Assembly: GCA_964544225.1 (NCBI GenBank)
Contig: CAZIZK010000001.1
Span: forward strand, 54,856 to 118,855
DNA from: an uncultured Candidatus Saccharibacteria bacterium
Lineage (GTDB): Bacteria; Patescibacteriota; Minisyncoccia; Phycocordibacterales; UBA9973
Reading direction: 5' to 3'
DNA: 64,000 nucleotides
Below the pieces are notes generated by a model. It saw nothing but the letters and a program-made list of their open reading frames with translations. It ran no database searches and was not told the origin of the DNA. Positions 7,200-27,457 of the stretch are shown here, piece by piece. Position numbers and translations under genes: made by a program. The first letter of the stretch is position 1. The number at the start of each line of letters is the position of its first letter.

Positions 7200-8444
7200 T
7201 TAATGCATATCCATAGATTCAGGCATGCTCGTACTACTTTTAATTTCCTTAAATATACTTGGATTTTCATCTCCTGTTACATCAAGTACTGCCCAAGCAC
7301 CTTTATTCATTCTTGCTAGTGCGTGATCTACAAGTAAATATTTACCTGGAACATCAACAGTGAATTCTACAATACTCGCTCCACCAGGAAGTACAGCGGT
7401 TGCTTGTGTATTGTGTTCCATCGCACCACCTATACTTGCATTTGGATACACGGTATCAAAAATCTCACCAATTACATGGAAAGAAGAGATCAGATTTACT
7501 CCACCATTGCCGACATACATACGAATTTTATCACCAACTTTTGCTTGCATTCGTGGTGTTGTTTCGATACGGCCATTGAAAGTTACATAGTTAGGATGAC
7601 CATCGAGAAGGGCATCAGGATCAAATGGCACCAACCCTTTTTTACCAAGCTGTCCAATGGTGTATAGCTCTCCTTGCATAACATAAAATTCTTTATCGAC
7701 TTCTGTAAACCCTTCTTTTGGATCAACTAAAATCATTCCATATTGTCCATGTGAATTGTGTGTAGAAACATTTGGCGTTGCGCAGTGATAAATATAAAGA
7801 CCTGGGTTTAATGCTTTCCATCTGAATGTTTTTGTTTCTCCAGGTGCTACATGAGTAACTGACGCTCCACCTCCTGGACCTGTAACTGCGTGTAGATCTA
7901 TGTTGTGGTCATGTAGACTTGATGGGTCATTTGTCAGTGTTAATTCTACCGTATCCCCCTCGCGTATACGAAGCATTGGACCAGGAACTTGTTTGTTGTA
8001 TGTCCAGTAGTTGAAATAAATTCCAGGAGATATCTCTCCGAGGACTTCTTGTGCAGTCAAACTAATACGCACAATACCGTCTGCGTCAGGTGCTTGTGGT
8101 TTTTCTGGAACAGCTGTCGGATCTGCACCAATATCTGCGACTTTATCGAAACGATTTTCATATCTAAAAAAGTCTATAATTTTAGCAAATGGGATAGATG
8201 GAGGGAGTCCACCCGGAGCGTGTGAATGCACAAATGCTGGCATAGCAAAATCAGGAGGATAAGTTTTGTTTGCCACTAGTCCTGTGAAAAAAGAAATCAC
8301 AATTAGAGCCACTGGAATGTAAAGCCATTTTTGCTTAAAAATTGAATGGAAATGACCTTGTTTCCATATATATCGCACAATTATGACAAAGGCTATAAAA
8401 CCTACTATTCCAGATATCATTTCAAAAATAAGGTATTTAAACAT
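7200..8444 (-). CDS. Copper-containing nitrite reductase (NirK)-like two-domain multicopper oxidase, membrane-anchored
   Basis: N-terminal TM helix; cupredoxin-type ligand motifs HDHNIDLH, YIYHCATP (Cys) and HGQYGM (Met). Confidence 0.55.
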   Translation of the reverse strand: MFKYLIFEMISGIVGFIAFVIIVRYIWKQGHFHSIFKQKWLYIPVALIVISFFTGLVANKTYPPDFAMPAFVHSHAPGGLPPSIPFAKIIDFFRYENRFDKVADIGADPTAVPEKPQAPDADGIVRISLTAQEVLGEISPGIYFNYWTYNKQVPGPMLRIREGDTVELTLTNDPSSLHDHNIDLHAVTGPGGGASVTHVAPGETKTFRWKALNPGLYIYHCATPNVSTHNSHGQYGMILVDPKEGFTEVDKEFYVMQGELYTIGQLGKKGLVPFDPDALLDGHPNYVTFNGRIETTPRMQAKVGDKIRMYVGNGGVNLISSFHVIGEIFDTVYPNASIGGAMEHNTQATAVLPGGASIVEFTVDVPGKYLLVDHALARMNKGAWAVLDVTGDENPSIFKEIKSSTSMPESMDMH

Positions 8445-8665
8445 ATAAAATATTTGTTAACTAATAATGCTTATTAAGACTGGACTAATTAAAATAACTC
8501 TTGCCAAGCAGTAGAGGCCTGTTTCATTATAGCAAAAAATACTTATCCACCGTTGCGCAAAACATAAAAACTTTTGTATAATGGTTTAATAGTTGCGAAA
8601 CTATGCAACTACTCTATTATACACCCCGCTTGTAGTGTTGCCAAGCGGTTTTAACAACTTTCATT

Positions 8666-11490: not shown

Positions 11491-12064
11491 ACATATGCTA
11501 TACACCAGAAAAGGAGACAACGGAACAACAAAACTTTTTGATTGCCCTCAAGGCAAACGAGTCAGTAAATCTGATTTTGTTTTCGAAGTACTTGGAACAG
11601 TTGATGAACTGAATTCTTCTATTGGATATGCAAAAGTGCTTTCAAAAAAAAGTAACGATACTCTTTCAATAGAAACACAAAAAATCTCTTACGAAAAAAT
11701 CATTGAAATACTTCAACAAAATTTGTTTTGCATCCAAGCTGAACTTGGAGGGTCAGATATACACCTAGATAAAAATCACATTCTTTATCTCGAAAAAGTT
11801 ATTTATGAAACAGAGACTGTCTTGCCTCCTATTACATCTTTTATTGTACCTGGAGGTGGAGAAACTGGGTCTTATTTAGATGTTGCTCGAACAATTGCTC
11901 GCAGAGCAGAACGACAATTAGTAACGCTCCGACATACAAAAGAACGAGTAGTTACAAATGAAAGTATAACTTTCATGAATCGTCTTTCAAGTGTTTTGTA
12001 TGCCATGGCTCGCTTTGCAAATTATCAGGAAGGATATTCTGAAGGAAAGCCAGATTATCAGTAA
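11465..12064 (+). CDS. ATP:cob(I)alamin adenosyltransferase, PduO-type (likely true start ATG near 11495, MLYTRKGDNGTT)
   Basis: YTRKGDNGTT, FIVPGG and RTIARRAER are PduO/MMAB family motifs. Confidence 0.8.
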   Translation: MLEDCVKYKHMLYTRKGDNGTTKLFDCPQGKRVSKSDFVFEVLGTVDELNSSIGYAKVLSKKSNDTLSIETQKISYEKIIEILQQNLFCIQAELGGSDIHLDKNHILYLEKVIYETETVLPPITSFIVPGGGETGSYLDVARTIARRAERQLVTLRHTKERVVTNESITFMNRLSSVLYAMARFANYQEGYSEGKPDYQ

Positions 12065-12081
12065 TTGCTTTTTAAGTTTAC

Positions 12082-12405
12082 TTGTTGCATACTTTAGAAA
12101 CTATGAAGATTAAACAACCACTCCCTCGTAAAGCCTACGAGAAAAATGCCGAAATATATAAGATTCTTGCTAACCCGAAACGGTTAGAGATTTTGAACTT
12201 GCTTCGCGAACAGGAAATGCCAGTAGAAGAACTAGTAAAAACACTGGGGATCCCAAAAGCAAATGTGTCCCAACATTTAGCACTACTTCGTCATGCAAAA
12301 CTTGTCACCGTGCGACGTAATGGACTAAATGGTTATTACAATATCATTGATCCGCGTATTGTTGAACCATGCAGAATTCTTCACGAACTTGCTAAGCGCA
12401 AATAA
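12082..12405 (+). CDS. ArsR/SmtB-family metalloregulator
   Basis: HTH_20 pattern ANPKRLEILNLL...VEELV...SQHLALLRHAKLV...RNG...YY. Confidence 0.75.
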   Translation: MLHTLETMKIKQPLPRKAYEKNAEIYKILANPKRLEILNLLREQEMPVEELVKTLGIPKANVSQHLALLRHAKLVTVRRNGLNGYYNIIDPRIVEPCRILHELAKRK

Positions 12406-12486: not shown

Positions 12487-12888
12487 TTAAGTAAAATTAA
12501 CCACGAAGTTAAACATTCCCATACTACATAGACCTTGGAGTGGAACTCCAGCTTTTGGTGTACCGATATCGATAACTTCTTCCCCAGTTTGAGCTAATAT
12601 TTTTTGATAGCCAATTGATCTGATAACTAAAGATGATGAACAGTCGTACGTTCCATTTGTTTTGACAATTAGTTTAGTTGGGATCCCTGCTTTTGCAGTA
12701 GACATTTCTGGAGAATATCCACCTTTTGCATCTATGGTTACATACTGAATACCATCTCTAATTTCTACATTTTGTACTGTCTGTACTGAAACTGCATTAG
12801 AGTTTTTAGACTTTGATCCACCCCAAAATACAATGGCAAGTCCAACCACAAGAGCTAAGGTAACAATGATTAAAGAAGTTTTGTTCAT
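12487..12888 (-). CDS. Secreted/anchored cupredoxin-like copper-binding protein (putative)
   Basis: N-terminal signal/TM; C-terminal Cys/Met-containing QGLCSMGMFNF; position in the cop operon. Confidence 0.35.
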   Translation of the reverse strand: MNKTSLIIVTLALVVGLAIVFWGGSKSKNSNAVSVQTVQNVEIRDGIQYVTIDAKGGYSPEMSTAKAGIPTKLIVKTNGTYDCSSSLVIRSIGYQKILAQTGEEVIDIGTPKAGVPLQGLCSMGMFNFVVNFT

Positions 12889-12905
12889 AATGTAATTATA
12901 TCAAA

Positions 12906-13913
12906 TTAAATATTAAATAAAGGATTAATAATACCGAGCCCTGCAAGTCCTGCGAGAAGTGCAAATATTCCAAGACCTATGACTACAACTCCTGCTGACT
13001 TAAAGAAAAGTGGTGCATGTTTTCCATGAGCAAGTGATGCTCCACCAAATGAGAGAAGTAAAAGTACCGGAAGAGTACCGAGAGCAAAGGCAAGCATTAT
13101 AAACATTCCAGATATAAATGACCCACTAGAGAGTGCCACAACTTGCATAGACTGAGTGAAGCCACAAGGCAAGAAGAATGTACCAAAACCTATAATTAAT
13201 GGTGTTAGAGTTTTGTGTTCAATTTTACGAAAAAAATTGAAGATTCCTGAAGGCAGTGCAATTTTATTCTTTTCAAACACTCCGACTAAATTGAGTCCTA
13301 AAAGGAGCATTACTGTTGAGGCTACAATTCCTAAAATTGCAGTAAATGTAAAACTAATACCAATTGCATTACCGAGCAATCCAAGTACTCCACCAAGCAT
13401 TGCAAAACTAACGAGTCTCCCAACATGGAAAAGTACAAATGTTTTCTTGTCACTTACATCATCTTGTGAGATCTTTGCTGAGAGTGAAAGCACAAACCCT
13501 CCGACTACAGCAAGACAGCTAGATACAGAAGCGATGAGTCCAATAATGAAGCTCGTAACTGGTGTAGCATTCCCACCAATACCAAGGTTTAGTAGTCCTG
13601 ACTTTTGTAATATAAAGAAAAGTATTAAAAATCCTAAACCTATAGGTAATGCTTTCCAGATAACATCATCTTTTTGTTTCTCTTTTAAAACTTTTTCTAT
13701 TGATACCGTATATCCATTTGGTCTTATCTTTTCAGTTAGAATACCTGCTAATTCTTCTTGTGACCTTTCACTACTAGTTTCTACTTGTAAGGTTTGACTC
13801 TTTAAGTTTACCTGTGCATTTTTAATGTAATCTTGCTCGCTCAAAATATCCTCGATCAAGATTTTACAGGATGCACAATGGGTACCTGAAACATGGAATG
13901 TGTATGTTTTCAT
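12906..13913 (-). CDS. Heavy-metal-associated (HMA) domain fused to a DsbD_2/CcdA-like polytopic membrane protein
   Basis: N-terminal GTHCASC HMA motif, then about 6-8 TM helices including an FLPCG motif. Confidence 0.6.
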   Translation of the reverse strand: MKTYTFHVSGTHCASCKILIEDILSEQDYIKNAQVNLKSQTLQVETSSERSQEELAGILTEKIRPNGYTVSIEKVLKEKQKDDVIWKALPIGLGFLILFFILQKSGLLNLGIGGNATPVTSFIIGLIASVSSCLAVVGGFVLSLSAKISQDDVSDKKTFVLFHVGRLVSFAMLGGVLGLLGNAIGISFTFTAILGIVASTVMLLLGLNLVGVFEKNKIALPSGIFNFFRKIEHKTLTPLIIGFGTFFLPCGFTQSMQVVALSSGSFISGMFIMLAFALGTLPVLLLLSFGGASLAHGKHAPLFFKSAGVVVIGLGIFALLAGLAGLGIINPLFNI

Positions 13914-13915
13914 AA

Positions 13916-16186
13916 TTATAATTTCTTCGCCTTAATTCTTAATGAGTTCGATACTACAGAGACACTTGAGAATGCCATAGCAAGTCCTGCGAATGCTGGA
14001 TTTAACAACCATCCAAATACTGGATAGAAAAGTCCTGCGGCGAGAGGAATACCAACCACATTGAATATAAAAGCCCAAAAAAGATTTTGTTTAATACCTC
14101 GCATTGTCATCTTCGACAGCTTTATTGCTTGTGAAATCTTTGAAACATCACCACCAAGAAGTGTGATACCTGCTGATTCAATAGCAACATCTGTACCTGT
14201 GCCCATAGCGATACCAACATCCGCTTGAACAAGAGCTGGGGCATCATTTATACCATCACCAACCATTGCAACAATTGCACCACCATCTTGTAACTCTTTT
14301 ATCTTTCCTGCTTTTTCTTGAGGTATCACTTCTGCAATAACAGCATCAATGCCTGCGAGTTTTGCTATATAGCTTGCTGCTAAATAGTTATCTCCTGTGA
14401 GCATTATTACTTTAATATTTCTTGCATGGAGTTTTGCTACAGCTTCTTTTGACTCTTCTTTTAGAGTATCTGAAAGTGCGATAAGTCCGATCTGTTTTTT
14501 ATCAACTTCTATGATAACAACTGTCTTACCTTGTTCTTGTAGTTCTTTGATATTATCTGTAGCAGGGACACCTTTAGATGGCTTATGGATTGCTATATGT
14601 TTATTACCAATCACTCCTTCTACCCCGACACCTTCGAGTGCTTGGAAATTTGTAACCGTTTCAAGAGGTATGTTTTGTTCGGTTGCCTTAACAACAACAG
14701 CATCTGCGAGAGGGTGTTCAGAAAGCTTTTCTACACTAGCACTTGCTCGTAGTATATCTGTTCCTGTCCATGCAGTATCAAGAGAGATAATATCGGTTAC
14801 TTCGGGTTTTCCTTTAGTGATTGTTCCTGTTTTATCAAGGACAACGGTATCTACATGACTAAGCTTTTCTAGGGCTTCAGCATTACGAATAAGGATTCCA
14901 TATTCTGCTCCTTTTCCAACACCGACAATGATTGCCGTTGGAGTAGCAAGACCAAGTGCACAAGGACAAGCAATAACAAGGACACCAACGAAAGAGAGAA
15001 TGCCGTATGAAAGAGCAGTCGAGAAACCGAGCGCTGATGCACCTACAGTAAGCCAAAGAATGAGAGTGATTACTGCTATACCTAGGACAATTGGCACAAA
15101 GACGCTGGAAATTTTGTCAGCGAGCGCCTGTATAGGAGCTTTTGATCCTTGTGCATCTTCAACCATTTTTATGATTTGAGCGAGTACAGTATCGGAGCCG
15201 ATTTTTGTCGCTTTAAATTTAAAATTACCTTGTTTATTGATTGTTGCACCTACAACAAAGTCTCCAGTCTTTTTATCAACAGGAATTGGCTCGCCTGTAA
15301 TCATTGATTCGTCAATAGATGAATATCCTTCAACGATAACTCCATCAACAGGAATTTTAGATCCTGGCTTTACGATAAGAATATCGTCGATTTGTACTTC
15401 GCTTACAGGTACTTCCACCTCAGCACCATTACGCCATAGTAAGGCGGTTTTTGCTTGAAGACCAAGAAGTTTTTCTATTGCTTCACCAGTACGAAGCTTT
15501 GAGCGTGCTTCGAGATATTTTCCCAATATCACGAAACCAATTACTACAATAGTTACATCAAAATAAGTGGTTTCAGGAAGTTTCAAGGCTATCCTCATTA
15601 AAGGGAAGAGCATAATGCTGATACTGTACAGATACGCAACAAGTGTTCCAATACCAATGAGGGTATCCATATTAGCGACACGATATTTAGTAAATTTTAC
15701 TACTCCTTGTAAAAAGGGTTGTCCAATCCAAAACAATACAACGCTCGCAAGTACCATAGAGATGGTGTTGAAGATAAACATTGGTAACGGAAGATTTGGA
15801 ATTGAAGTAAATAACTTTGCACCGATATCCCACATCATTAAAATAAAAACAAGAAGAGCTATTGGTAACACGAACTGTGTTTTTGTCTTCATAATAATAA
15901 GCTCTTTCATTTTTTCATCTTTTGATTGATTGATACCTGTATGCATACTATGGTCTTCCATGGTATGAGAGTTGGTTTCCTCAATGAACATATAACCCAA
16001 CTTTTCAATTTCATTGTTCATTTGGGGTACAGTAACAACATTGTCATCAAAAGAAACAATTGCTTTTTCCGTCGCGAAGTTAACATTAACAGTATCTACT
16101 CCTTCAAGTTTAGAAACCTTATTGGTGATAATAGTTGCACAACTAGCACAGTGCATCCCTTTAATTTTTAGTGTTTTATTTGTCAT
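13916..16186 (-). CDS. copA: Copper-translocating P1B-type ATPase
   Basis: HMA GMHCASC, membrane CPC ([11 protein letters not shown]), DKTGTIT phosphorylation site, [10 protein letters not shown] hinge. Confidence 0.9.
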
Positions 16187-16200
16187 ATAGGGATTTGATA

Positions 16201-16764
16201 TTAAATGTTATACCATTGTGTTCTCCAATCTTTGAAGAGTTTTAATGTTGTTGTAAGGAATATATCAACCGCATCGGCATTGTTCAAAATTTCAGTTCTA
16301 CTTGATTTTGTTTTTATTTCTTTTGTCATGAGTAATCCTGACTCATGGTGTGCAATAAGTGCATTAAGAAAACGGAGGTCAAATTTCTCATCATACGTCC
16401 CAAGGTTTGAGACAATTGGATCTTTGACTTGCTTTGTATCCCCATACCAGTCTTTTTTCCATGTGTATAGCTCAGCAATTGCTTTTGGTTCATCTCGAAG
16501 AATCATTACGGAGAGGTCTTTCATTTCTTGTCGCTGTGTCTGTGTGCTTGCTTGTGTAGCTAAAAGCATGGCTCCTCTGTGGTGAGCAATCATTGCATTG
16601 ATATAACGAAGATCGAGTGTTCGATCTGGACGACCTAAATCCATAGTTGTTTTGTCGTACATACTCACTTTGTAGTCGGTGGTACTGGCATACCCAGCAA
16701 CCCACCCCAAAACGCCTGTCACTACCATAAGAGAAATTGCTAATGTGGTTGAAATTTTAGACAT
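16201..16764 (-). CDS. DUF305 family protein (copper-resistance associated)
   Basis: Two repeats carrying the IAHH motif ([22 protein letters not shown]); N-terminal TM. Confidence 0.7.
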
Positions 16765-16802
16765 AATTTTTTATATAAATTTAATAATAAAACACTAAAA
16801 AC

Positions 16803-17078
16803 CTACTGCATGTTGTAGATTTTTAACAATTCTTTGATTGAACCTTCCTTGTCGGTCTTTAACCTTTCAGCAAGGCAAGACTCTAAGTGACCCTTTAGTA
16901 ATTCTTTTCGTGCGCTATGCAAAAGACCTACGACACTATCGATCTGCTGAATAATTTCAGGGCAGTATCGTCCATCGTCGACCATCTCAGGAATCTTAGC
17001 TACACTTCCTATTGCCATATTAATAACTTTGCGAGCCTTTGTGTTTGGCTCACCGTGCTTGTGTGTTTGTTTTACCAT
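16803..17078 (-). CDS. csoR: CsoR/RcnR-family copper-sensing repressor
   Basis: 91 aa DUF156 with YCPEII...H...C ligand pattern; heads the cop operon. Confidence 0.75.
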   Translation of the reverse strand: MVKQTHKHGEPNTKARKVINMAIGSVAKIPEMVDDGRYCPEIIQQIDSVVGLLHSARKELLKGHLESCLAERLKTDKEGSIKELLKIYNMQ

Positions 17079-17120: not shown

Positions 17121-18449
17121 TTATTTTACCAATGTAATCTTCTTATCATTCAGCACCAACCTACTCCTCAAATGTCCCATCAGTTCACGCTTCTCTAGTG
17201 GTGTGCCTTCCCTCAGCACATACTTGGCATACTCTCTTGTATTCACGTCATCTTCGTTGATGTTGTATTTTGGCGTTCCCTTGGTTGCCAGTCGTTGCAG
17301 TCTATTAAATCGCTTGATTTCTTCTTCAAGCTTGATTCGCATACCTAGTTCGTTGATGCTTACTTTATCTATGACTTTGAATAGCTCCTCAATCAGTTCT
17401 TCCTCTCGTATATATTTATTCTTGCAATTCCTGTCTCTTGCCTTTGAACAGGAGTAGTAGACATACTTGGCGGTCGTTCCATCTTTGAGTTCCTTGTACT
17501 TCTCCTGTGCCGTTATACCTGACTCACACATTCCGCAGGTAAATAGTTTAGTAAATGCGAACTCTCTGTTTTCTCTCACAATCCTATCTCGCTTTAAATG
17601 TGATTGGGCTTTTTCAAATAATTCTTTGGTGATGATTGGTGTATGACTTCCTTGATACCAGTTGTCACTATTTCTCGGATATTCAAATGGTCCATAATAG
17701 ATTGGCATTTCAAATATTCGATACACTCCTGATAGTGTAAGGGGCTTATTTCCTCGAGTGTAGAAATTCAGATCGAATCGCAACCAGTTATATACCTTTC
17801 TTCCGCTCCATCCATCGTATGCAACTTTCTCAAACATTTGTTTGATTACATGAGCCCGATCTGGGTCAATAATTATCTGACACTTCCTATCCATTAACTT
17901 TTGATTCAAATATCCAAGCGGTGCCATTCCAGGCCATAGCCCCATCTCTACTCTCGTTCGCAATCCTCGCTTTACATTGATGCCTCTGTTGTCGTTCTCA
18001 AGTTTCGCTTGGCTTCCCAATATCATCAGGAGAAACTTCTCGTTTGGATTGTTTCCGAATGTCTGCCCGAAGGTTCGTATCATGTGCAATTTTCCTGCAT
18101 CCATCAGGTCTACGATTTTTCCCAAGTCTCCTGCATTTCTTGAGATACGATCTGGTGCCCAAGTAAGTATCGCATTGAATTTCTCTTGCTTGAGTTCCTC
18201 AATGATTTCGTTGAAGACTGGTCGCTGTCCTGTTTCCTTTGCACTATGACTCTCACGCTTCATGGTTACTACTTCAAGCCCCTCACGATCCGCTAATTGG
18301 AGCATCTCGCTAATCTGGCTATCAATACTCAATACCTGCCGTTCCTCAGACTCTGTTGATTTTCTTGCGTATAAGCAATATCTGATCTTCTTTGGTTCGA
18401 CTACTACTTTTGCTACACCTTGCTCCATATTTGGGTTTTCTATCTTCAT
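17121..18449 (-). CDS. Large serine recombinase (resolvase/invertase N-terminal domain plus recombinase and zinc-ribbon domains)
   Basis: N-terminal YARKSTESEE...SIDSQ (catalytic Ser region), C-terminal Cys cluster CGMCESG...YSCSKARDRNC. Confidence 0.85.
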   Translation of the reverse strand: MKIENPNMEQGVAKVVVEPKKIRYCLYARKSTESEERQVLSIDSQISEMLQLADREGLEVVTMKRESHSAKETGQRPVFNEIIEELKQEKFNAILTWAPDRISRNAGDLGKIVDLMDAGKLHMIRTFGQTFGNNPNEKFLLMILGSQAKLENDNRGINVKRGLRTRVEMGLWPGMAPLGYLNQKLMDRKCQIIIDPDRAHVIKQMFEKVAYDGWSGRKVYNWLRFDLNFYTRGNKPLTLSGVYRIFEMPIYYGPFEYPRNSDNWYQGSHTPIITKELFEKAQSHLKRDRIVRENREFAFTKLFTCGMCESGITAQEKYKELKDGTTAKYVYYSCSKARDRNCKNKYIREEELIEELFKVIDKVSINELGMRIKLEEEIKRFNRLQRLATKGTPKYNINEDDVNTREYAKYVLREGTPLEKRELMGHLRSRLVLNDKKITLVK

Positions 18450-18592: not shown

Positions 18593-21112
18593 ATGAAAAT
18601 TTTTATTCGCAATAATTTATATCGCTCAAAAAAATTTTGGCTCATAAAAAAATGGTTTGAAGAAAAACCAATTTTTAGCTTTTGGGCAAAGATCTTTAAA
18701 CTCGACTTTAATATAAATAAGGGTAAATATTCGGCACGCTTATTGTGGCCTTCAATTTTTCCATTCATTCGGACACTTATCTATTCTATTTTTATAATCG
18801 CAATTTTTGAAACGTACAGTTACTTTTTTCCAGTGGATCAAAAAATATTTAGTGATCAGGTTACTGATACACTACTTTCGGCGATTGCCAGTGTATCCGG
18901 TGTATTCCTTGGTCTTTATTTTACGGCTGTTTCCAGTATCGCAAGTAATTTTTTATTACGTGCCACTCAAAATATAAGGCGCTACTTCCTTTCGACTCCA
19001 ATTGGAGAACAATACGTTAGGACCGTAGCCCTTACGGGTATCATAAGTATTTTTTATCTGTTGGCAAAATCGTTTGGACACCCAATACACCCAGTTGGCT
19101 TAGTATTTCTTTGTATTGCTGGAGCATATATCATAATCAGATTTTGGAGTGTTGGATCAAATGTTTTCTATTCATTGGAACCAACTGTTGCCCTGCCTTC
19201 AATCGGTAAAAACATTGCAGACCTATTGAAGGGGGTTACGCCACCGGGTTTTAAATGGGATAAACCAGCAATACAAAATCATCAAAGACGCCTAGTGTCA
19301 GACAATTTGGAGCTTGCTAAAGACCTTATTGATTTTGGAATTAAAGAGATAAAGCTTTCAAATGAACAATTACATATTGCTCTTCGTTATTTAGGTGGTT
19401 TGCTTTTTTTATATCCTCAATACAAGAAGAAGATACCGACTAATAGCTTTTGGTTCAAAACAAAAAATCAGTACGATAGTTGGACCTTAGCGGATTCAAC
19501 ACAAATCGCGCTTGCCTTAAACACTGGCACAAGTTTGCAACCCAAGACAATCAAAGATTTTACTTGGTTTGAAGAAGAAACTTTGGATATGAGTGTAAAG
19601 ATTTTTGAGTTTTACGCCAAAGAGAAAAATGTTGCCTCTGTATTCCAAGGACTAGAACTTTTTGTAGAAATCGCTGAAGTTTATGCGAGTGAGTTTGATG
19701 AGGAAGGACTAAAGCTTCTTTTACAGAAAACAGAAAAGGTTGCAGGATTGGTCGACCTAGAAAAAGTAGCAGATCCAAAAAATGTTCGGTACAAAGAACA
19801 AATGGCTTTTATTGATACTCAAGGCCGGTTAGCTATAGGGGCGGTGCTTGGATTGGCTAGGTATCTTGATACTGCTTCTGCGGAAAGCTTATCCACGACT
19901 ATTTCAAATATTAAGTGGTATTCAAATAAAAACATTTATCTTACAGGGCTACCTTTGTCGGTTCTATCGCGTCTGGAATCTACTGCAAGTGATTTAAAAG
20001 CTGAAATGCTAATTGAGGGTAGGCAGCTTTCCCCTGAGTGGTATATACGCACTCTTTGCGTTCAGAAATACTTATTCGCACTCTTAGGTTATTTCAAATA
20101 TCTAAAAACCCTTCATTCAACTTACTTTGAACCAAAGCTTGGAAAATTGCTTGCCGAGGATCAATTAGGTCTTGCTGTTCAATTGGTGCAACGCTGGATC
20201 GAGTTTACTCACAAATATAATCGGCTCGTTGGATTGATTGCAAAACATATTGAAGATTGTGTACCTTATCACCAAGTCAAAGATCTTTCTTGGATAGAGT
20301 TTAGTGCAGACGAAGAGTATAAAACCGCAAGGGACCGCGAAAAAGAAGTAGCCGATAAAATGATTAGATTGTTGCCTCGATTAATGACAATGCCTACCGA
20401 AAGCGATATGCCAGACTACTTTGGGCAAGCTCTTACGCAAGGCGTTCAGGCCTGTTATGAGGCGTGTGAGGAGAACGACCCAGTCAGGTTGAAAGCAATA
20501 TTCCCGGTTGTTTTTATAGCTTCACTTTCGGCTTTTGATATGACGAGAGTGAGAGTTCAAAACTGGTCCGAAGAACAAAGCAAAATAATCTATTCAACAG
20601 AACCTCTTATAAATCTCTACGAACTAAGTGGATTTGCTAAATTGTATTCAGAGCTCTACCAAAACACGGAGCTTTGGAATGTTGTGCAAACACCGTGGGA
20701 CACTTATTTGGGTGGTATCGATGCCGTACAAGAAATTACACGCATCGCGGCCATTACTAACTATCGACGTGGACTTTTCATGATCATGCCACAAGCAACC
20801 TTACGAACAAACTGGCAAATGCGATTTAGTAATAAAATGAGAGAACAAGGTTTAGCTGTTTTCCCCGATAGTAGAAGCTATGACTATGTAAATGGCCGAG
20901 AAGATCCTGCGCATGCGAGCGCGATTATTCGTGTAGTTACTCGATCAGGTGGTTTGAGTTTATCTACAGGTCAGACCGTATTTTTCGTAACATATTTATC
21001 CCAACACCCAGGGGCAACAGGAATTGATCTACCAGACCAACGCGACATGAGAGAACAAATACAACGAGAAGAAGAAAGATCTAATGAGGAAGAAAATAAT
21101 GACTATGAATAA
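18593..21112 (+). CDS. Large hypothetical protein (839 aa), N-terminal multi-TM anchor plus large soluble region, acidic C-terminal tail
   Basis: Long intact ORF with four predicted N-terminal helices and no recognisable catalytic motif. Visibly GC-richer than its neighbours. Confidence 0.5.
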   Translation: MKIFIRNNLYRSKKFWLIKKWFEEKPIFSFWAKIFKLDFNINKGKYSARLLWPSIFPFIRTLIYSIFIIAIFETYSYFFPVDQKIFSDQVTDTLLSAIASVSGVFLGLYFTAVSSIASNFLLRATQNIRRYFLSTPIGEQYVRTVALTGIISIFYLLAKSFGHPIHPVGLVFLCIAGAYIIIRFWSVGSNVFYSLEPTVALPSIGKNIADLLKGVTPPGFKWDKPAIQNHQRRLVSDNLELAKDLIDFGIKEIKLSNEQLHIALRYLGGLLFLYPQYKKKIPTNSFWFKTKNQYDSWTLADSTQIALALNTGTSLQPKTIKDFTWFEEETLDMSVKIFEFYAKEKNVASVFQGLELFVEIAEVYASEFDEEGLKLLLQKTEKVAGLVDLEKVADPKNVRYKEQMAFIDTQGRLAIGAVLGLARYLDTASAESLSTTISNIKWYSNKNIYLTGLPLSVLSRLESTASDLKAEMLIEGRQLSPEWYIRTLCVQKYLFALLGYFKYLKTLHSTYFEPKLGKLLAEDQLGLAVQLVQRWIEFTHKYNRLVGLIAKHIEDCVPYHQVKDLSWIEFSADEEYKTARDREKEVADKMIRLLPRLMTMPTESDMPDYFGQALTQGVQACYEACEENDPVRLKAIFPVVFIASLSAFDMTRVRVQNWSEEQSKIIYSTEPLINLYELSGFAKLYSELYQNTELWNVVQTPWDTYLGGIDAVQEITRIAAITNYRRGLFMIMPQATLRTNWQMRFSNKMREQGLAVFPDSRSYDYVNGREDPAHASAIIRVVTRSGGLSLSTGQTVFFVTYLSQHPGATGIDLPDQRDMREQIQREEERSNEEENNDYE

Positions 21113-22151
21113 ATACTTTAAAAAAATTAAAGAGGTGGTGTTGGCCTACTTAAAAGATCCTCTTTTATTGCGAAAGTGGGATCAACCAGATTATTACCGA
21201 TATAGAGGACGTGGTGATAATAATAATCAGTTGTCATTCAGGAGTTCACGAAACAGACGTCACAGGTACCATTATCACGGTACGTCTTCAATGTTCATTG
21301 AAGATATGTTTAGCGGAATAATGCCGTTTATGATTTATAGCGGCGTTAGAGAAAAGTATCCTGCAAAAATTGAACCAGCCGCACCCGATAAAGAAGCAAT
21401 AATTGCTCAAGGTCTTTCTGGTCGCAGGCATCGAACAGCATTAGGTGAAGGTCTTTGTGATTTTGTGCGTGATACAGCACATGTGCTTTTTCAAGACGGC
21501 TTAGCAATATACGAAATTATTTATAAAAAGAACGAAACTGGAGAAACCGAAAGCTATAGCTTTGAATTAATGGATCATTATGGTCTATATAGATTTTTTG
21601 GTAATTACTATCAATTTGTTTCTTGGGCTGATGCAAAGGCTTCACATACCAAAGTTCAAATAATCAAAATACCAAAAGAAAAAGTATTACGCATCGAGTT
21701 CCCAAAAGAACTCGGCGGGCAAAAACGTATCAATAAAATATTAAAGCGATCATGGGAACTCGGACAAGAGATTATTCCTAAGTTTCAAATGGACGCAATG
21801 GAAAAACAAGAAAACATTGGCTTTGATTCAAAGATATATACGGAAGCAAAGTATTTAGAAATTGCGACTCTTACAAAAGACTTGGGATGGAACCAGCGCC
21901 AGTTATCAACCAACCATATTACGGAATATTATGCCCTTCTACGTCTTCTTAGGCAGAAAAAAGTAGAAGCTACTGTTCGAGAAAAGATTTTTACCAAACT
22001 TAATGAAGTCTTAAATGGATCAGTTTTAAACTTTGACGCTCAAGTTTCAATGGATAATCTTTTTACAGCTTCTGATATTGATGCACGTGTCAAAAAACTT
22101 ACAGAAGGTAACACAACTTTTATTGATTTGTTTACTGATACAAGTTTTTAA
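21084..22151 (+). CDS. Hypothetical protein (355 aa) overlapping the preceding gene by 29 nt; Arg/His-rich low-complexity N-terminal region
   Basis: The overlapping start implies translational coupling with the 839-aa gene. Confidence 0.45.
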   Translation: MRKKIMTMNKYFKKIKEVVLAYLKDPLLLRKWDQPDYYRYRGRGDNNNQLSFRSSRNRRHRYHYHGTSSMFIEDMFSGIMPFMIYSGVREKYPAKIEPAAPDKEAIIAQGLSGRRHRTALGEGLCDFVRDTAHVLFQDGLAIYEIIYKKNETGETESYSFELMDHYGLYRFFGNYYQFVSWADAKASHTKVQIIKIPKEKVLRIEFPKELGGQKRINKILKRSWELGQEIIPKFQMDAMEKQENIGFDSKIYTEAKYLEIATLTKDLGWNQRQLSTNHITEYYALLRLLRQKKVEATVREKIFTKLNEVLNGSVLNFDAQVSMDNLFTASDIDARVKKLTEGNTTFIDLFTDTSF

Positions 22152-22244: not shown

Positions 22245-22447
22245 ACAATTTAATAACAGACCTAACCCCTCAATTTATTGAGGATATGGTCGCAAAATCC
22301 GTCCAAAGTAAAGAACTCCTAGTCAGAGTCTACTTTGGACGGTCATATCTGGAAACGGGTATGGGTATACCTCACGGGGTATATCGGATCTGGCTAGGAG
22401 CTTTTTGCTACCTATACGGTCCTTCATAACAAAACCGTCCAAAGTTT
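22245..22447 (+). other. Structured 5' leader or candidate ncRNA with an extended -10 (tggtataat), a perfect 12-bp inverted repeat and a direct repeat of ccgtccaaagt
   Basis: ccgtccaaagta-N20-tactttggacgg; a second ccgtccaaagt lies 10 nt before the ATG of the 22448 gene; cctcaa-ttta-ttgagg hairpin. Confidence 0.3.
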
Positions 22448-23365
22448 ATGAAAAATCTTTTAGAAAAGTTTAAACAATTATCTCTTTTTAAGCAGATAAT
22501 TATTGTTCTTGTTGTTCTTACTATTGTTATAGTTAATTTTGATTTATTTAAAAACCTCGTTTACATAGGTCTTGTTGTTGGTGCAATTTATCTTTTATTT
22601 ACTAAAGTATTCAGATCACCAAAAAGAAAAGGACTGGATCTATATTCTCAAAAAATCAAAGAACTTTTAATTGATGGCAATTTGTCAGAGGAAGACAAAA
22701 TAATCCTAGAACAGATTAAAAAAGAGAATAATCTAAACGATAAAGATGTCGAGAAATACAACTTGGCAGGATTCAAAACTTTCTTCGATAAAATTACAGA
22801 TGATTCACGAATTTCAGAAGAAGAAAGAAAAGAACTTGTTAAGATATATTCTGATCTAAATCTGCCAACAGATAAACTCGCATACAGTCAAAGTGATTTT
22901 AATAAATACCATACGCTTCATTTGATAGATCAAGGGACACTTCCAACTATTGATGTACCCAATCTAAATGTTAATTTAAAGGCAGACGAAAAACTGCATT
23001 ATGTAAATAAGGCATTTATTGTTAAAAATAAATCTATAACTACAGGTATTAATTATAGTGGTCTTTCTGGTTCTATTAAGATTGCAAAAGGAATACGCTA
23101 TAGAATCGGAAGTATGAAAATTGCTCCACAGAAAGTAAATGTAATGATGACTGATGATGCAGGTACTTTCTATTTAACAACAGAGAATCTTGGTTATATT
23201 GGTCTTAACAAGCACTTCAGTATGTCATACGACAAAATATCTTCTCTAGATGTTAGAGAAGGATTTTTGTACCTATACAAGAAAGGAAAAGAAGGACCAT
23301 TTATTATTTCAATGGATGATTTTGAACTACCGCTTGCGATTGTTTCTTTCAAGATAAATGAGTAA
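22448..23365 (+). CDS. Hypothetical membrane-anchored protein (two N-terminal TM helices)
   Basis: 305 aa ORF, no recognisable motifs. Confidence 0.4.
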   Translation: MKNLLEKFKQLSLFKQIIIVLVVLTIVIVNFDLFKNLVYIGLVVGAIYLLFTKVFRSPKRKGLDLYSQKIKELLIDGNLSEEDKIILEQIKKENNLNDKDVEKYNLAGFKTFFDKITDDSRISEEERKELVKIYSDLNLPTDKLAYSQSDFNKYHTLHLIDQGTLPTIDVPNLNVNLKADEKLHYVNKAFIVKNKSITTGINYSGLSGSIKIAKGIRYRIGSMKIAPQKVNVMMTDDAGTFYLTTENLGYIGLNKHFSMSYDKISSLDVREGFLYLYKKGKEGPFIISMDDFELPLAIVSFKINE

Positions 23366-23373
23366 GTTTTGTT

Positions 23374-24870
23374 CTATCTTTCCATCTCTTTAAACTTCTC
23401 AGAATATTTTTTAGTAATGTCGTCGACATCTTCGCTAACACCAAGATCAAACATAAAACACCCCTCTGTAATTTCAAGAGTATATAGAAAAGATTCCTCT
23501 ATATAAAAGCACTCCATTGCTGTATCTAGAAGCATACTTAAGCTGTTATTAAGTAGTAATACTTCATCTTGATATGAATCAATGAAACTTTTATAGTGTT
23601 CAGTCATATCAATATCAAATATAGACGAGACTTTTTGAGCCAATTCTTTGAACTCACATAGTGTTCGGTAATTCTTGATTGGCATTGCATGCTTTTTTAC
23701 GAAAAGGAACATGTTTGAAATCGGCATAAGTAATTCGACTTGCTGTTTGTATTCTTTAACAAAGTCAATATTTTCTTTGCAGTTATATAAACTAATGCCA
23801 GTTATAATCTGAACTTGTCTCTGCATCCCCAAGAAATCCTTTTCAATTGTTTGTTCCGTAAGCGAGTCAGTATCAAATAATTTTTGAAAATACTGTTTTG
23901 ATTTTTGCAGTTCAGTATACCAAGCTATAAATAATTCTTTGTGATTATTTTTTGTGTTTCCATTCCATGTATCAAATCTTTCACTCATAAAAATCGTTGA
24001 ATATTCTTTTGTAAACAAACCGTCATCTAGCCATAGAAATATCTTTTCTTTAATAAGAGATTCTATGCTTGTATTTTTACTCTTTGCATATAATTCAATT
24101 GCAGATAATAGTCTTTCTTCAAATTTCTCATCTTTGTCCATGTACGCAATATGAAGATCATCAGCTAGTTTGATGAAAATCTCTTTAATAGGAAGTTCAG
24201 CAAAGAAAACATGGAGTAAGAAGCCATCTTTTTCTGCTGTACTGCGTTTTATCTTCTTTGCTCCCTCATAATACATACGCGAATAAATACGATCTATGAT
24301 TAGGTCTTTGTCTTGTTTAGTGAGAGTATCTCCATTTTTAAATCTTTCATAAAGAAAAACCTGCTCACTAAGGTAGTTATGATCACTGGCTGATCCTTCA
24401 TCTAAAAGAAGCAAATCACTTTGAATGTCTTTTGGAAGATTATTGAAGGTAAATATATGCAGTACTTTTGCGTATTCTAGATAGGTTTGTGCCGTAACGA
24501 ACTTTATACTTTCTTCATGGGAAATGTCTTTTAAAAATTCAGTCTCAACTTTTTCTTTAAATTTTCTCGCGTGAGAGAGGAGGCTATCAACAACTCTCTG
24601 ATTTCGCAAGAGAGATACTTCGGATCTATACAAAAACATTTGAGCATCCATTTTCATGGCATCTTCAAGCTGAACAATATTTATGTATTTGTTGTATTCA
24701 ATTGCTTCTAATCTACTCGGCATCCATCCTTTAGTTAGAATATATAAATCAGATTCCGAAAGGTGTCCCTTACCAGTCTTTTCTCTGTGAATATCATTAT
24801 GAACAAGTGCTTTCACTCGTTCAAATGGAGTTATGTTTGATCTTCTTAAAATATTGGTGAGACTTTTCAT
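23374..24870 (-). CDS. Hypothetical protein (498 aa)
   Basis: Long AT-rich ORF with no recognisable motifs. Confidence 0.4.
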   Translation of the reverse strand: MKSLTNILRRSNITPFERVKALVHNDIHREKTGKGHLSESDLYILTKGWMPSRLEAIEYNKYINIVQLEDAMKMDAQMFLYRSEVSLLRNQRVVDSLLSHARKFKEKVETEFLKDISHEESIKFVTAQTYLEYAKVLHIFTFNNLPKDIQSDLLLLDEGSASDHNYLSEQVFLYERFKNGDTLTKQDKDLIIDRIYSRMYYEGAKKIKRSTAEKDGFLLHVFFAELPIKEIFIKLADDLHIAYMDKDEKFEERLLSAIELYAKSKNTSIESLIKEKIFLWLDDGLFTKEYSTIFMSERFDTWNGNTKNNHKELFIAWYTELQKSKQYFQKLFDTDSLTEQTIEKDFLGMQRQVQIITGISLYNCKENIDFVKEYKQQVELLMPISNMFLFVKKHAMPIKNYRTLCEFKELAQKVSSIFDIDMTEHYKSFIDSYQDEVLLLNNSLSMLLDTAMECFYIEESFLYTLEITEGCFMFDLGVSEDVDDITKKYSEKFKEMER

Positions 24871-24871
24871 A

Positions 24872-25069
24872 TCATTTGTTTTTTCTTAGTGCATTTTCCA
24901 AGAACTCGACCCGTTCTTTAAGTTCTGTGTTGACTATATTTTTTGAAAGCGTAGAAGTAAGCTTAGCAATCATAGATGCCTGCTTGAGTGACATTTCCTT
25001 ATTCATCACTTTACGGATGGTGTCCGAAAGAATGTTATTTATCTCTTCTAGATTAATTGGTTTAGTCAT
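24872..25069 (-). CDS. Small hypothetical protein (65 aa)
   Basis: One nucleotide from the neighbouring gene. Confidence 0.3.
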   Translation of the reverse strand: MTKPINLEEINNILSDTIRKVMNKEMSLKQASMIAKLTSTLSKNIVNTELKERVEFLENALRKNK

Positions 25070-25070
25070 A

Positions 25071-25445
25071 CTAGTTATTTTCTACGATTTCAAACCAAGC
25101 TCTCACTTCATGAGCCTTGCCACTTTTAATAATGTTTTTGTAGAGTGCAAAGATAACATTTGGGGTTAACTTTCTTGCCCAAGAATTTATATCCTGAACT
25201 AATCCGTCTTTCTCAAGTCTTTTGTTCCAATCGGTAAGCGTTCCGACATCGATGTTATATTTTTTTGAGAATTCTAGTTGTGTTTTAATTGCGAGTAATT
25301 CAAACACAGTTTCTTCTTCAATGCCAAATTTCTCGAGTGCTACTCTTGGTTGCCCCTTAAGAAACGAAGGAAGGGACTTCCAAAGAGCGTAAGTCTCGTA
25401 GACTTGCTTTTTATATGGATCTTTAGAAAAATCTTCTTCCTGCAT
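25071..25445 (-). CDS. Small HTH-containing protein, possibly terminase-small-subunit-like or a regulator
   Basis: 124 aa; an HTH-like segment directly upstream of the two MTase genes, mirroring the TerS/MTase arrangement at 1.1-2.8 kb. Confidence 0.3.
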   Translation of the reverse strand: MQEEDFSKDPYKKQVYETYALWKSLPSFLKGQPRVALEKFGIEEETVFELLAIKTQLEFSKKYNIDVGTLTDWNKRLEKDGLVQDINSWARKLTPNVIFALYKNIIKSGKAHEVRAWFEIVENN

Positions 25446-25452
25446 ATATCAC

Positions 25453-26202
25453 TTAAAGCTTTATAGCAGTCTCGCCAGTGAGCTTCTCAAGCCTTGTGAG
25501 GGATGTTTGTACATATGCCTCATCAAGCTCTATTCCGATACACTTTCGACCCAAGTGCTGACATGCGACCCCTGTTGATCCACTTCCAAGAAATGGGTCA
25601 TATACAACATCACCAACTCTTGTTGAGTTAGGAATTATCTTTCTCAATAGTCCAATTGGTTTTTGTGTGGGGTGGAGTTTAGATTTATGAGGTCTAGGAT
25701 GAAAGATAACATTTCTCGCTTTAGACTGTTCCATTTTGTGTTTGCCAAACCATCCGTATGCAATCAGTTCATACATCGACAAATAATCCTTTCTGCTCAT
25801 GACTGGCTGATTCTTCAGCCAAATAATCATTTGGCTGTAATAAAAACCAGCAGACTTCATTCCCAAGCGTAAACTTGGAAACATTAAGTCGGCATTGAAA
25901 ATATATACCGCATTGTATTCTTCAAGATACGGAATAGTCGCACCTAAATATTTGCGAGTGAAATTTTCGTATTCCTCTTCTGATTGCAGGTGGTCATTAG
26001 CGATAATTTTTTCATTATTAACACCGAGTTTTGATAGTCCTATTTTATTTTCTACATAAGCAACGCCGTAGGGAGGATCGGTCACCACTGCTCGTATTTT
26101 ATTGTTACCTATAACCTTTGCGACAAATTCTTTATCCAGAGAATCGCCACATCCGATAATGTGATTTCCGACTCTAAAAATATCTCCTTTATTTATTTTC
26201 AT
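25453..26202 (-). CDS. DNA N6-adenine/N4-cytosine methyltransferase (beta class, stand-alone)
   Basis: Motif IV TDPPYG and motif I YDPFLGSGST. Confidence 0.8.
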   Translation of the reverse strand: MKINKGDIFRVGNHIIGCGDSLDKEFVAKVIGNNKIRAVVTDPPYGVAYVENKIGLSKLGVNNEKIIANDHLQSEEEYENFTRKYLGATIPYLEEYNAVYIFNADLMFPSLRLGMKSAGFYYSQMIIWLKNQPVMSRKDYLSMYELIAYGWFGKHKMEQSKARNVIFHPRPHKSKLHPTQKPIGLLRKIIPNSTRVGDVVYDPFLGSGSTGVACQHLGRKCIGIELDEAYVQTSLTRLEKLTGETAIKL

Positions 26203-27457
26203 AGATTTTATTCGCCTTAAGATTGGTAAATTTTTCCCAACGATCTATGATAATCGTCGCGAAGAGTAAATCTTTTTCGACCCCACGCCATACACGATTT
26301 AATTCTTCACATGCAATCAAATCAGATCCGCTTCCAGCGAAGCCAGAAAAGATGATATGCCCAGGTGCAGAGCATCGTTTGAAAGGCTTTTCATTTAAAG
26401 AAATCGGTTTCTGCGTCGGATGTAAATAGCTTTGAGTGTTATCTCTTTTAACAAGCCAAAGGTCTATCATGTCCTGCAATTCATCCAGAACCTGATTACC
26501 AGTTGTTACTTCTTGATTAAGAATTTCATTTGCATTCCTGAAGTTTGGATTTAAGTATGGCTTACCAAGCGTGCCGTAAGTACATGGCTCATAGAGTCTA
26601 TTCCAAGCAATTTTCGGAGTGCAGTTCTGGTTCGATTTTATCCAAAGGCATACTCTTCTTTTCTTGATTTGGTATTTATCGTATAGAGATTGAGTTAATC
26701 CTATACTATTTGGGTCTGACCAGTAAAAGAAGTGTGAGTCTGGTTTTGCAAATTTTTTAGCTGTCTCCATGCTCTTACTAATAAATTCAGAGTATTCCTC
26801 TTCGCTTTTATTATCTTTGTATTCTCCGCCGTATTTTCCTCCGTATTCCCAAGAAATATTATAGGGCGGATCACAGAAGACAATATCCGCTAGATCATCT
26901 TTCATGAGTTCTTTAACCTGATCTTCGTTAGTGGAATCTCCGACTAAGAGACGATGCTTCCCGAGTTCCCAAACTTCTCCTAATTTCACTTTTGGTGCCA
27001 CTGTTTCTTTAATGGCTTTTCCAACATCAAAATCATCTTCAACAAGATCCACGTCATCAAATAGATTCTGTAATTCTTCATCTCCAAAACCAACATCAAG
27101 AAGCATGTCCATATCGAACTCTTTCAAGAGTTCTTCATCCCATGAACCAGTATTCTTATTAAGTCTCAAGTTGAGTTCTTTTTCTTCTTCGAGTGTTAAT
27201 TCCCGTGAAGGAATCATGCACTCAATTTCTTCAATACCAAGATCCGCATACACTTTTATGCGTTGTTCACCTCCAATAATTATATTGGCTCGTGAGCCTA
27301 TATTTAGAACTATTGGCACGACTGTACCAAATTCTTTAACAGACTTTTCCAAGTCTCTTCGCTCACTCTCGCTTAACTTTCGCGGATTGTATCCGTTTTT
27401 GATCAGATCACTAAGTTTGCGAGAACTATGTGACCATGTGGGCTTTTGTTTTGCCAT
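26189..27457 (-). CDS. ParB-like nuclease domain fused to DNA methyltransferase (paralog of 1546..2829)
   Basis: N-terminal ParB-like IIGGEQRIKV, motif IV CDPPYN, motif I FSGFAGSGS; same architecture as the first fusion. Confidence 0.8.
   Translation of the reverse strand: MAKQKPTWSHSSRKLSDLIKNGYNPRKLSESERRDLEKSVKEFGTVVPIVLNIGSRANIIIGGEQRIKVYADLGIEEIECMIPSRELTLEEEKELNLRLNKNTGSWDEELLKEFDMDMLLDVGFGDEELQNLFDDVDLVEDDFDVGKAIKETVAPKVKLGEVWELGKHRLLVGDSTNEDQVKELMKDDLADIVFCDPPYNISWEYGGKYGGEYKDNKSEEEYSEFISKSMETAKKFAKPDSHFFYWSDPNSIGLTQSLYDKYQIKKRRVCLWIKSNQNCTPKIAWNRLYEPCTYGTLGKPYLNPNFRNANEILNQEVTTGNQVLDELQDMIDLWLVKRDNTQSYLHPTQKPISLNEKPFKRCSAPGHIIFSGFAGSGSDLIACEELNRVWRGVEKDLLFATIIIDRWEKFTNLKANKIYENK

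Follow-up and report, generated by a model that had tools for sequence, protein, structure and literature searches.

What role do two adjoining genes have that lie between a large serine recombinase gene and a methyltransferase (MTase)/ParB-MTase pair in an uncultured Candidatus Saccharibacteria bacterium? Do they serve the mobile element, derive from a virus or protect the cell? The genes, termed A and B, were analysed in the window, i.e. the whole stretch of 64,000 nt presented here, and compared with relatives in about 52 loci.

Gene calls and the A-B junction

The original prediction, made from the DNA alone, placed two open reading frames of 839 and 355 aa between the recombinase and the MTase genes, and these are real, as are the flanking genes (Table 1). 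It also described the stretch as GC-richer than its surroundings, which is not the case: the GC content of A-B is 0.376, the same as in the 10 kb upstream (0.376) and close to the window mean (0.383), and it stands at the 42nd percentile among windows of the same length. Solely in relation to the two genes directly downstream (0.29-0.32) is it GC-richer, and the argument from a shift in composition was dropped. The island that contains the pair (17121 to ~28856) also carries unannotated genes of 498, 305, 231 and 148 aa and phage-type ParB-MTases.

Table 1. Genes and sequence features in and around the A-B pair (window coordinates)
Feature	Position	Strand	Description
Gene A	18593-21112	+	839 aa; predicted N-in, 4 TM, ~650-aa cytoplasmic helical solenoid, acidic C-terminal tail
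Gene B	21105-22151	+	348 aa; predicted portal fold; start probably at ATG 21105
Longest open reading frame of B	21084-22151	+	355 aa
Large serine recombinase	17121-18449	-	Pfam Resolvase + Recombinase + Zn_ribbon_recom; divergently oriented
MTase/ParB-MTase pair	25453-27457	-	other flank of A-B
LOOT sRNA gene (Rfam RF03000)	22259-22385	+	108 nt 3' of B; cmscan 83.7 bits vs gathering score 46.4
A-stop/B-start overlap	21105-21112	+	junction ATGAATAA; likely translational coupling
TM module of A	18752-19150	+	aa ~54-186; from hydropathy and AlphaFold2 helices
Acidic C-terminal tail of A	21035-21109	+	aa ~815-839; from sequence

That the two genes overlap was correctly predicted, but the 29 nt given for the overlap is an artefact of the longest open reading frame, and the overlap is probably 8 nt. 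The consensus start of the B family is M8 (MNxxxKKIK). In related loci A and B overlap by 8 nt (L001, L004, L006, L008 and L010) or 4 nt (L007), and longer overlaps occur as called in L002 (29 nt) and L003 (41 nt). The family consensus and these gene calls indicate that B most likely begins at the later ATG. An overlap of 4-8 nt is also present in L067 and L068. Such a persisting overlap fits translational coupling of A and B, which is likely from the gene arrangement.

The pairing itself is close. B is found within 60 nt after A in 43 of 44 non-redundant loci, which bears out the notion of a tightly coupled two-gene module; one A-B fusion protein exists, and two distant B representatives, picked regardless of A, have an A-family gene upstream with an overlap of 4-8 nt. 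Downstream, a LOOT sRNA is situated at the matching position in L001 and L003 (by cmscan and our own CM search), and the block of high identity between the window and L001 terminates within this sRNA.

Distribution, mobility and neighbours

A and B are sporadically distributed over more than 10 phyla, the sources including CPR bacteria, Acidobacteria, Bacteroidota, Verrucomicrobia and Firmicutes. Plasmids of Burkholderia and Paenibacillus carry them as well, with IS66 and VapBC in the flanks. Cultivable carriers are Dendrosporobacter, Paenibacillus lautus, where A-B lies at 216907-220373 of pAZOPL1 (NZ_CP032413), and Burkholderia glumae, with A-B at 142013-145551 of a plasmid (NZ_CP021077). 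The flanks differ in every locus, and among the ~52 loci no third conserved gene was found beside the pair. When the window is compared with L001, a comparison of two Nomurabacteria genomes, A has a dS of 0.13 and B one of 0.10, whereas for adjacent genes it is 1.0-3.5; this difference points to a recent horizontal exchange. The dN/dS ratios of 0.04-0.16 indicate purifying selection on both genes, and the protein lengths of both families are tightly conserved.

Are these core genes? Conserved core synteny, named in the original prediction as grounds against it, was not found, and with differing flanks, a sporadic phyletic pattern and a dS of ~0.1 against 1-3.5 in the flanks, the core-gene reading was rejected. 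The pair is accessory and mobile, as had been supposed. There is strong support for A and B as an accessory module of two genes, complete in itself, that spreads horizontally and whose members are inherited together.

Only one neighbour is recurrent, a large serine recombinase at a distance of 6 kb or less in 11 of the ~52 loci. An orthologue of this recombinase is located directly upstream of A in L001, L003 and L030, even where A is 37% identical, and the recombinase-A-B block is better conserved than its flanks. In some loci this mobility gene is linked to the pair, but the module also exists without it. Could A and B nevertheless serve the element that carries them, B forming a ring on the A anchor that acts as a DNA conduit, or handles DNA, when integrative elements of the serine-recombinase type and plasmids are transferred, taken up or maintained? 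The recurrent recombinase, the conserved block and the plasmid loci speak for this, and portals, whose fold is predicted for B, are DNA channels. Most loci, however, have no recombinase, relaxase or motor ATPase nearby, and a channel by itself cannot move DNA without an ATPase. In addition, the recombinases of the window and L001 differ with a dS of 1.0, against 0.1 for A-B, and do not share the recent history of the pair. A service to the mobile element is unlikely.

Other neighbours are diverse. L010 has the pair immediately after a type I RM system with ThsB-TIR, within a serine-recombinase element, and elsewhere SocA/Panacea, MNT-HEPN, NERD, PemK/PIN and Imm_superinfect genes are close by. 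In a census of 150 neighbouring proteins the top families, by raw counts, are recombinases, SNF2/ResIII and MTases. Many neighbours are housekeeping genes. The original prediction saw in the location a setting typical of defence or accessory cargo, and the pair does often adjoin recombinases, RM systems, TA modules and MTases. Sporadic occurrence, variable flanks, horizontal transfer and nearby RM, TA and recombinase genes are the marks of mobile accessory or defence-island cargo, and the pair shows them all, the neighbours being taken as raw counts.

Predicted structures of A and B

Neither A nor B, relatives included, has a match above threshold in Pfam, NCBIfam, PHROGs or PADLOC, in accordance with the predicted absence of a described family; nor was a match to a housekeeping family obtained, the second of the grounds that the original prediction had named against itself. 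In PADLOC-DB v2.0.0 (Kiwa, Zorya, Abi and PDC candidates) no model matches A or B at E <=1, and the relatives searched, 29 of A and 112 of B, give isolated weak matches only. No recognisable effector enzyme domain or nucleic-acid-binding signature is present in A or B.

That A is an inner-membrane protein is strongly supported. The N-terminal TM helices and the acidic tail (…REEERSNEEENNDYE) noted earlier are both seen. There are 3-4 hydrophobic helices, with Kyte-Doolittle peaks at aa 54-72, 95-116 and 164-182 and AlphaFold2 helices at aa 55-78, 88-121, 136-160 and 167-193, and the acidity of the tail is retained by most members of the family. The AlphaFold2 model is confident and consists of a 4-TM anchor, an all-alpha cytoplasmic solenoid and the tail. 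Its basic N-terminus and the charges in its loops point to four TM helices with both termini inside (N-in/C-in), such that the solenoid of ~650 residues and the acidic tail would face the cytoplasm. Best conserved in the family is the motif GVFLGLYFTA in TM2, where G103, L108 and Y109 are invariant across phyla. Further invariant residues of A are E327, E471, E537, K541 and D608. A search with the AlphaFold2 model of A revealed no specific structural relative and no viral structural counterpart.

The TM region shows a weak similarity to DUF2254 of Pfam in 4 of 29 A-family members, all below threshold (best match E 0.0038, profile positions 10-168, 16.5 bits vs a gathering score of 28.8); the A protein of the window has no match. 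The PADLOC candidate PDC-S39 matches one of the 29 (E 3.7e-5). In both cases the similarity is confined to the 4-TM module and, as far as tested, those families include neither the large cytoplasmic domain nor a B partner. Nothing relevant on DUF2254 was found in the literature.

B has the basic N-terminus that was predicted, rich in Arg, Tyr and His at aa 37-66. Invariant in the B family are Q177 and R299, as numbered in the 355-aa open reading frame. At the level of sequence it remains true that no motif is recognisable, but the predicted structure of B is a phage-portal fold with wing, stem, clip and crown, which makes this a different kind of system than first pictured. The AlphaFold2 model of B is confident (pTM 0.82, five concordant models). 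The nearest known proteins are the portals of tailed phages, archaeal tailed viruses and gene transfer agents (GTAs), e.g. HK97 gp3 (PF04860), the RcGTA portal (6tba) and those of phage Chi (8vhx) and 80alpha (8v8b).

Could structure prediction have produced the resemblance artificially, or could an unrelated fold have converged on a similar alpha/beta arrangement? B has no match to the portal families of Pfam and PHROGs, and PF04860 is matched by one of 112 B relatives (E 0.0014). Sequence-profile searches of the PDB gave no match for B, and PDB profiles gave nothing overall. A comparison by hhalign of the B family with an HK97-portal alignment, which is shallow (74-96% identity, best 120 matches listed), yields a probability <1%. 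The evidence for the portal relationship is solely the predicted structure, profile comparisons with portals being not significant, and the match comes from one model and one search method. On the other hand, the five concordant models were obtained from 52 sequences with no templates, and chance or convergence is not expected to single out one family so exclusively. An artefact is extremely improbable.

Might B be the genuine portal of a virus-like or GTA-like particle that has escaped recognition, its other parts being encoded elsewhere in the genome or too divergent to be detected, and A assisting assembly at the membrane? The predicted fold agrees with this, GTA genes can be scattered across the genome, and the unannotated genes and phage-type ParB-MTases of the island could belong to such a particle. 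Yet more than 50 loci in over 10 phyla share A and B only. No capsid, terminase or tail family recurs near the pair in the ~52 loci, and B is not surrounded by a head-morphogenesis module (terminase, capsid, protease) or accompanied by a recurrent adaptor gene. The unannotated island genes are missing from most other loci, and the pair resides amid housekeeping genes and on plasmids. No homologue was found in 50,697 phage genomes, nor in IMG/VR pattern scans with narrower alignments, which are sensitive to close relatives only. B differs from known portals also in its partner, a large membrane protein lacking a viral counterpart. A virion portal is very unlikely. In the window, too, no capsid, terminase or tail gene is detectable in the island, and as the pair occurs elsewhere without the island genes, a prophage reading was rejected.

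A predicted portal fold with no virus genes nearby points to a virus part that has been reused by cells. Strong support exists for B as a cytoplasmic protein with a predicted tailed-phage portal fold that was recruited outside any virion gene context.

Possible function and significance

The A-B pair is very probably a mobile accessory module that contains an exapted portal fold. What does it do? The most likely function, suggested by the neighbourhood, is that of an anti-phage system, at somewhat less than an even chance. A little more tentative is the proposal of a domesticated phage portal in a membrane-tethered, horizontally spread two-protein machine, which might block head assembly or DNA packaging by mimicry or gate DNA at the membrane. 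As an anti-phage system, the pair would act late in infection. A would hold B at the membrane, possibly as a portal-like ring, and B, as a portal mimic, would engage those components of head assembly or DNA packaging for which a portal is the normal docking site; candidate targets are the large terminase-DNA complex, the scaffold and the capsid protein. Packaging or assembly could then be poisoned by sequestration. Alternatively, a signal might pass via the conserved TM module of A and lead to membrane collapse, i.e. abortive infection. A decoy or sensor mechanism specifically is, however, unlikely.

Among known systems, Kiwa (KwaA/KwaB) also has, in a single operon, a gene for a membrane protein with several TM helices and then one for a soluble partner, and is likewise sporadically distributed in variable or defence regions. 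However, A-B matches no Kiwa model of PADLOC, A is far larger with its solenoid, and B has a predicted portal fold and not DUF4868. The satellite proteins that interfere with phage assembly (SaPI CpmA/B, P4 Sid, PLE TcaP) and the portal- or terminase-sensing Avs are encoded by hosts or mobile genetic elements and act on phage head-assembly or packaging components. Their likeness to A-B would be conceptual only, as sequence, fold and gene context are unrelated, and we know of no satellite interference protein or Avs that is itself homologous to portals and has a membrane protein as its partner.

Alternatively, A and B might form an accessory membrane complex unconnected with defence, for instance one that deals with the envelope or with stress or that acts as a scaffold, the fold of B being an oligomeric scaffold with no phage link. 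The absence of enzymatic and nucleic-acid-binding signatures, the many ordinary housekeeping neighbours and the weak likeness of the TM module to DUF2254 agree with such a complex. Its probability is nonetheless rather low, given a sporadic spread driven by horizontal transfer, the recent exchange of exactly A and B, the repeated adjacency of RM, TA and recombinase genes and the lack of a conserved metabolic or envelope operon around the pair.

Cellular descendants of capsid, tail and sheath proteins are well known, e.g. encapsulins, tailocins and the T6SS. To our knowledge no portal protein is in use outside a virion, GTA or satellite, and a full-text search of the literature found no portal-like protein in a defence or non-viral context. 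If the exapted portal fold is borne out, A-B would be the first such case, and portal mimicry or membrane DNA gating would be without described precedent as a principle of defence or DNA handling. As a defence system, the pair would follow a new logic, the mimicry of a conserved virion part, and would be a rare candidate from the CPR/Patescibacteria. The presence of A-B in cultivable hosts makes its function directly testable. The B family is large, with at least 1089 clusters at 50% identity, entirely unannotated and maintained under purifying selection.

Pairing, gene boundaries and distribution

Gene A, which encodes a predicted membrane-anchored protein, and its downstream partner B form a unit to which no other gene belongs. 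Scanning the species representatives of GTDB yielded 52 loci (designated L001 and so on), located in CPR bacteria (Nomura-, Staskawicz-, Moranii-, Magasanikii-, Doudna- and Saccharibacteria) and in Acidobacteria, Verrucomicrobia, Rhodothermales, Ignavibacteria, Omnitrophota, Margulisiibacteriota, Actinobacteria, a 1.48-Mb Thermodesulfobacteriota chromosome and a Dendrosporobacter isolate. Three plasmids were added by tblastn, one from Burkholderia glumae (predicted conjugative) and two from Paenibacillus; their copies of A and B are both annotated 'hypothetical protein'. Of the 44 non-redundant loci in which A and B could both be detected, 43 have B starting within 60 nt of the end of A; where B is missing, the locus is a contig end or a decayed copy. 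Two distant B representatives, picked regardless of A, are likewise each preceded by a gene of the A family that overlaps them by 4-8 nt, so the pairing is seen from the side of B as well. At 90% identity, homologues form 88 (A) and 87 (B) clusters of near-constant length (~840 and ~346 aa), nearly all from CPR/Patescibacteria MAGs; the top homologue, from Candidatus Nomurabacteria GW2011_GWE1_32_28, is 98% identical. The B family comprises 1089 clusters at 50% identity (E <= 1e-3).

Where does B begin? In the family consensus the first residue corresponds to the third Met of the longest ORF (MNxxxKKIK), and A and B overlap by 8 nt in the gene calls of L001, L004, L006, L008 and L010 and by 4 nt in L007; the shorter B is therefore most likely. 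Longer overlaps are called in L002 (29 nt) and L003 (41 nt). The genes do overlap as predicted, but the 29 nt originally given is a product of choosing the longest ORF.

Of interest is P0317 of L065, a single 1145-aa ORF joining A-family (aa 2-798, without the acidic tail) and B-family (aa 832-1143) sequences. It is either a natural fusion or a frameshift or assembly error; a natural fusion would support physical interaction of A and B.

Features of the window and of homologous loci (window genes A and B from the ORF listing)
Locus	Feature	Position	Strand	Remarks
Window	107-nt stretch	7084-7190		92-93% identical to L001 3878-3983 and L003 93-165; not a tRNA
Window	Copper-resistance cluster	12487-17078	-	Cupredoxin-like, HMA/DsbD_2 protein, Cu P-type ATPase (756 aa), 187-aa DUF-like, CsoR-type repressor
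Window	Large serine recombinase	17121-18449	-	
Window	Gene A	18593-21112	+	839 aa
Window	Gene B	21084-22151	+	Longest ORF, 355 aa; most likely start 21105, 348 aa
Window	LOOT sRNA gene (Rfam RF03000)	22259-22385	+	83.7 bits, gathering score 46.4
Window	305-aa TM protein gene	22448-23365	+	GC very low, 0.29
Window	Methyltransferase block	23374-27457	-	498-aa unknown, 65-aa, 124-aa HTH, DNA MTase (249 aa), ParB-N-fused MTase (422 aa)
Window	tRNA-Ile (anticodon TAT)	36694-36768	-	Ordinary gene
Window	tmRNA	40771-41162	+	Tag ANKVASVKSPYAFAFSGSALSFA; ordinary gene
L001	LOOT	13664-13803		
L003	LOOT	8434-8570		
L008	LOOT	14487-14621	-	Directly adjoins large serine recombinase
L015	LOOT	8277-8404		
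L021	LOOT	1476-1625		
L031	LOOT	1982-2123		
L009	Broken A	9797-12329		504 + 267 aa; Dadabacteria MAG
L038	Broken A	1818-4373		Two pieces
L060	Decayed A	4220-6459		Many fragments
L065	P0317	8001-11438		

Predicted structures

Sequence and an AlphaFold2 model place hydrophobic helices of protein A at about aa 54-72, 95-116 and 164-182, with a weaker one at 136-160, in keeping with the N-terminal TM helices first described. The acidic tail of A and the low-complexity N-terminus of B were likewise read correctly; the tail is strongly acidic, and the N-terminus is rich in Arg, Tyr and His. The basic N-terminus and TM2-TM3 loop of A suggest, by the positive-inside rule, an N-in/C-in topology with a large cytoplasmic C-terminal domain. 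The models, template-free from homologue alignments, have good confidence for both proteins and are all helical for A (pLDDT 84, pTM 0.78) and mixed alpha/beta for B (pLDDT 83, pTM 0.82).

Neither protein has a match in Pfam, NCBIfam, PHROGs or PADLOC, nor do the family profiles match PDB sequences. The TM module of A resembles DUF2254 below threshold in 4 of 29 relatives, and one A relative matches the PADLOC candidate PDC-S39. By its modelled fold, B groups with portal proteins. This proposed kinship is not visible to family profiles or hhalign: 1 of 112 B relatives touches PF04860 (E 0.0014), and comparison with a shallow HK97-portal alignment is not significant. The original prediction, which recognised no motif, thus stands for sequence; the portal fold emerges with structure prediction only. 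A mis-predicted fold is considered highly improbable.

Neighbourhood and mobility

Could B be a genuine portal, belonging to a particle that has escaped recognition? This is very unlikely, and the neighbourhood speaks against it. Capsid, terminase and tail families are absent among 150 neighbours (Pfam and PADLOC census), and the pair stands outside any virion context; a search of 50,697 phage genomes and pattern scans of IMG/VR turned up no relatives. The census is led by Resolvase/Recombinase, SWI2/SNF2-ResIII, N6_N4_Mtase, HTH_17, type I R subunits, SocA/Panacea and HNH, with housekeeping genes mixed in. In L010, on a serine-recombinase element, the pair is immediately preceded by a type I RM system that has a ThsB-type TIR gene; elsewhere it adjoins SocA/Panacea, MNT-HEPN, NERD helicase, PemK/PIN or Imm_superinfect genes, and in the Burkholderia plasmid copies of IS66 flank it, with VapBC next to it.

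All-against-all clustering of 463 neighbouring proteins gave a single recurrent neighbour, a large serine recombinase, present at 11 loci; ParB/DNA MTases were found at 3 loci, as was type I HsdR. DNA handling by A-B for the carrying element is supported by the recombinase link, but there is no motor ATPase and most loci lack a recombinase; this role is rated unlikely. LOOT lies near the pair in seven CPR loci, six of which also have a large serine recombinase. The window copy follows B at a distance of 108 nt and has an extended -10-like TGGTATAAT ahead of it; the block of high identity with L001, a closely related Nomurabacteria locus, stops ~20-35 nt into this LOOT copy. Serine-recombinase elements may use LOOT as an integration target or carry it as an sRNA.

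Over aa 52-146 the 305-aa TM protein encoded just after the pair matches PADLOC candidate PDC-S48 (E 3.3e-8); it also matches Pfam DUF5048 below threshold. In L001 its place is taken by two different genes, of 205 and 265 aa, and it may be separate, variable defence-type cargo. L001 keeps the methyltransferase block (~76% DNA identity), whose 498-aa protein has no family match, and beyond it has another serine recombinase, of 516 aa, that is absent from the window. The copper-resistance cluster, immediately left of the window recombinase, is syntenic with L001 at saturated synonymous divergence (dS 2.0).

The stretch was first called GC-richer than its surroundings, which is incorrect: A-B GC is 0.376 versus 0.383 for the window (42nd percentile of equal-sized windows), and lower values (0.29-0.32) are confined to the two genes that follow. 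The module is nevertheless real and accessory as predicted, with flanks that differ at every locus. Between the window and L001, A-B DNA is 91-100% identical, mostly at least 95% (100-nt windows), the recombinase 76-92%, and the outer flanks 72-76% or unalignable. Synonymous divergence is 0.13 for A and 0.10 for B versus 1.0 for the recombinase, 2.0 for the Cu ATPase, 1.8 for the ParB-MTase and 3.5 for the 498-aa gene; dN/dS for A and B is 0.04-0.16. A and B were therefore recently exchanged between otherwise diverged genomes and kept functional. Since A is split or decayed in L009, L038 and L060, the module is sometimes lost through pseudogenisation, as accessory cargo would be.

A putative role in phage defence

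A, a membrane-anchored cytoplasmic solenoid, and B, with its predicted portal fold, are translated together, inherited together and mobile. They are tentatively regarded as an anti-phage pair, a reading held with less than even confidence; a non-defence membrane scaffold is rather unlikely. A would tether B to the membrane as an anchor and is possibly a membrane effector, because TM2 holds the family's most conserved motif, GVFLGLYFTA. For the CPR clade one might speculate that A and B touch through the acidic tail of the former and the basic N-terminus of the latter, or that these segments are DNA mimics. Procapsid assembly is nucleated by portals, on which the terminase-DNA complex docks; portal mimicry, by which A-B would interfere with or sense phage head assembly and packaging, is therefore rated the most likely mechanism, one that is in itself improbable.

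B is like portal proteins in predicted fold but unlike them in sequence and gene context. Kiwa-like two-gene defence systems share the architecture of membrane anchor and soluble partner, but A-B has no HMM match to Kiwa or other defence systems. Full-text literature searches brought up no account of portal-like proteins outside viruses, whether in defence or elsewhere. On these three grounds the module is regarded as new in kind, with a putative function. A portal exapted into a widespread cassette of two genes would surprise the specialist, and cultivable carriers make A-B directly testable.
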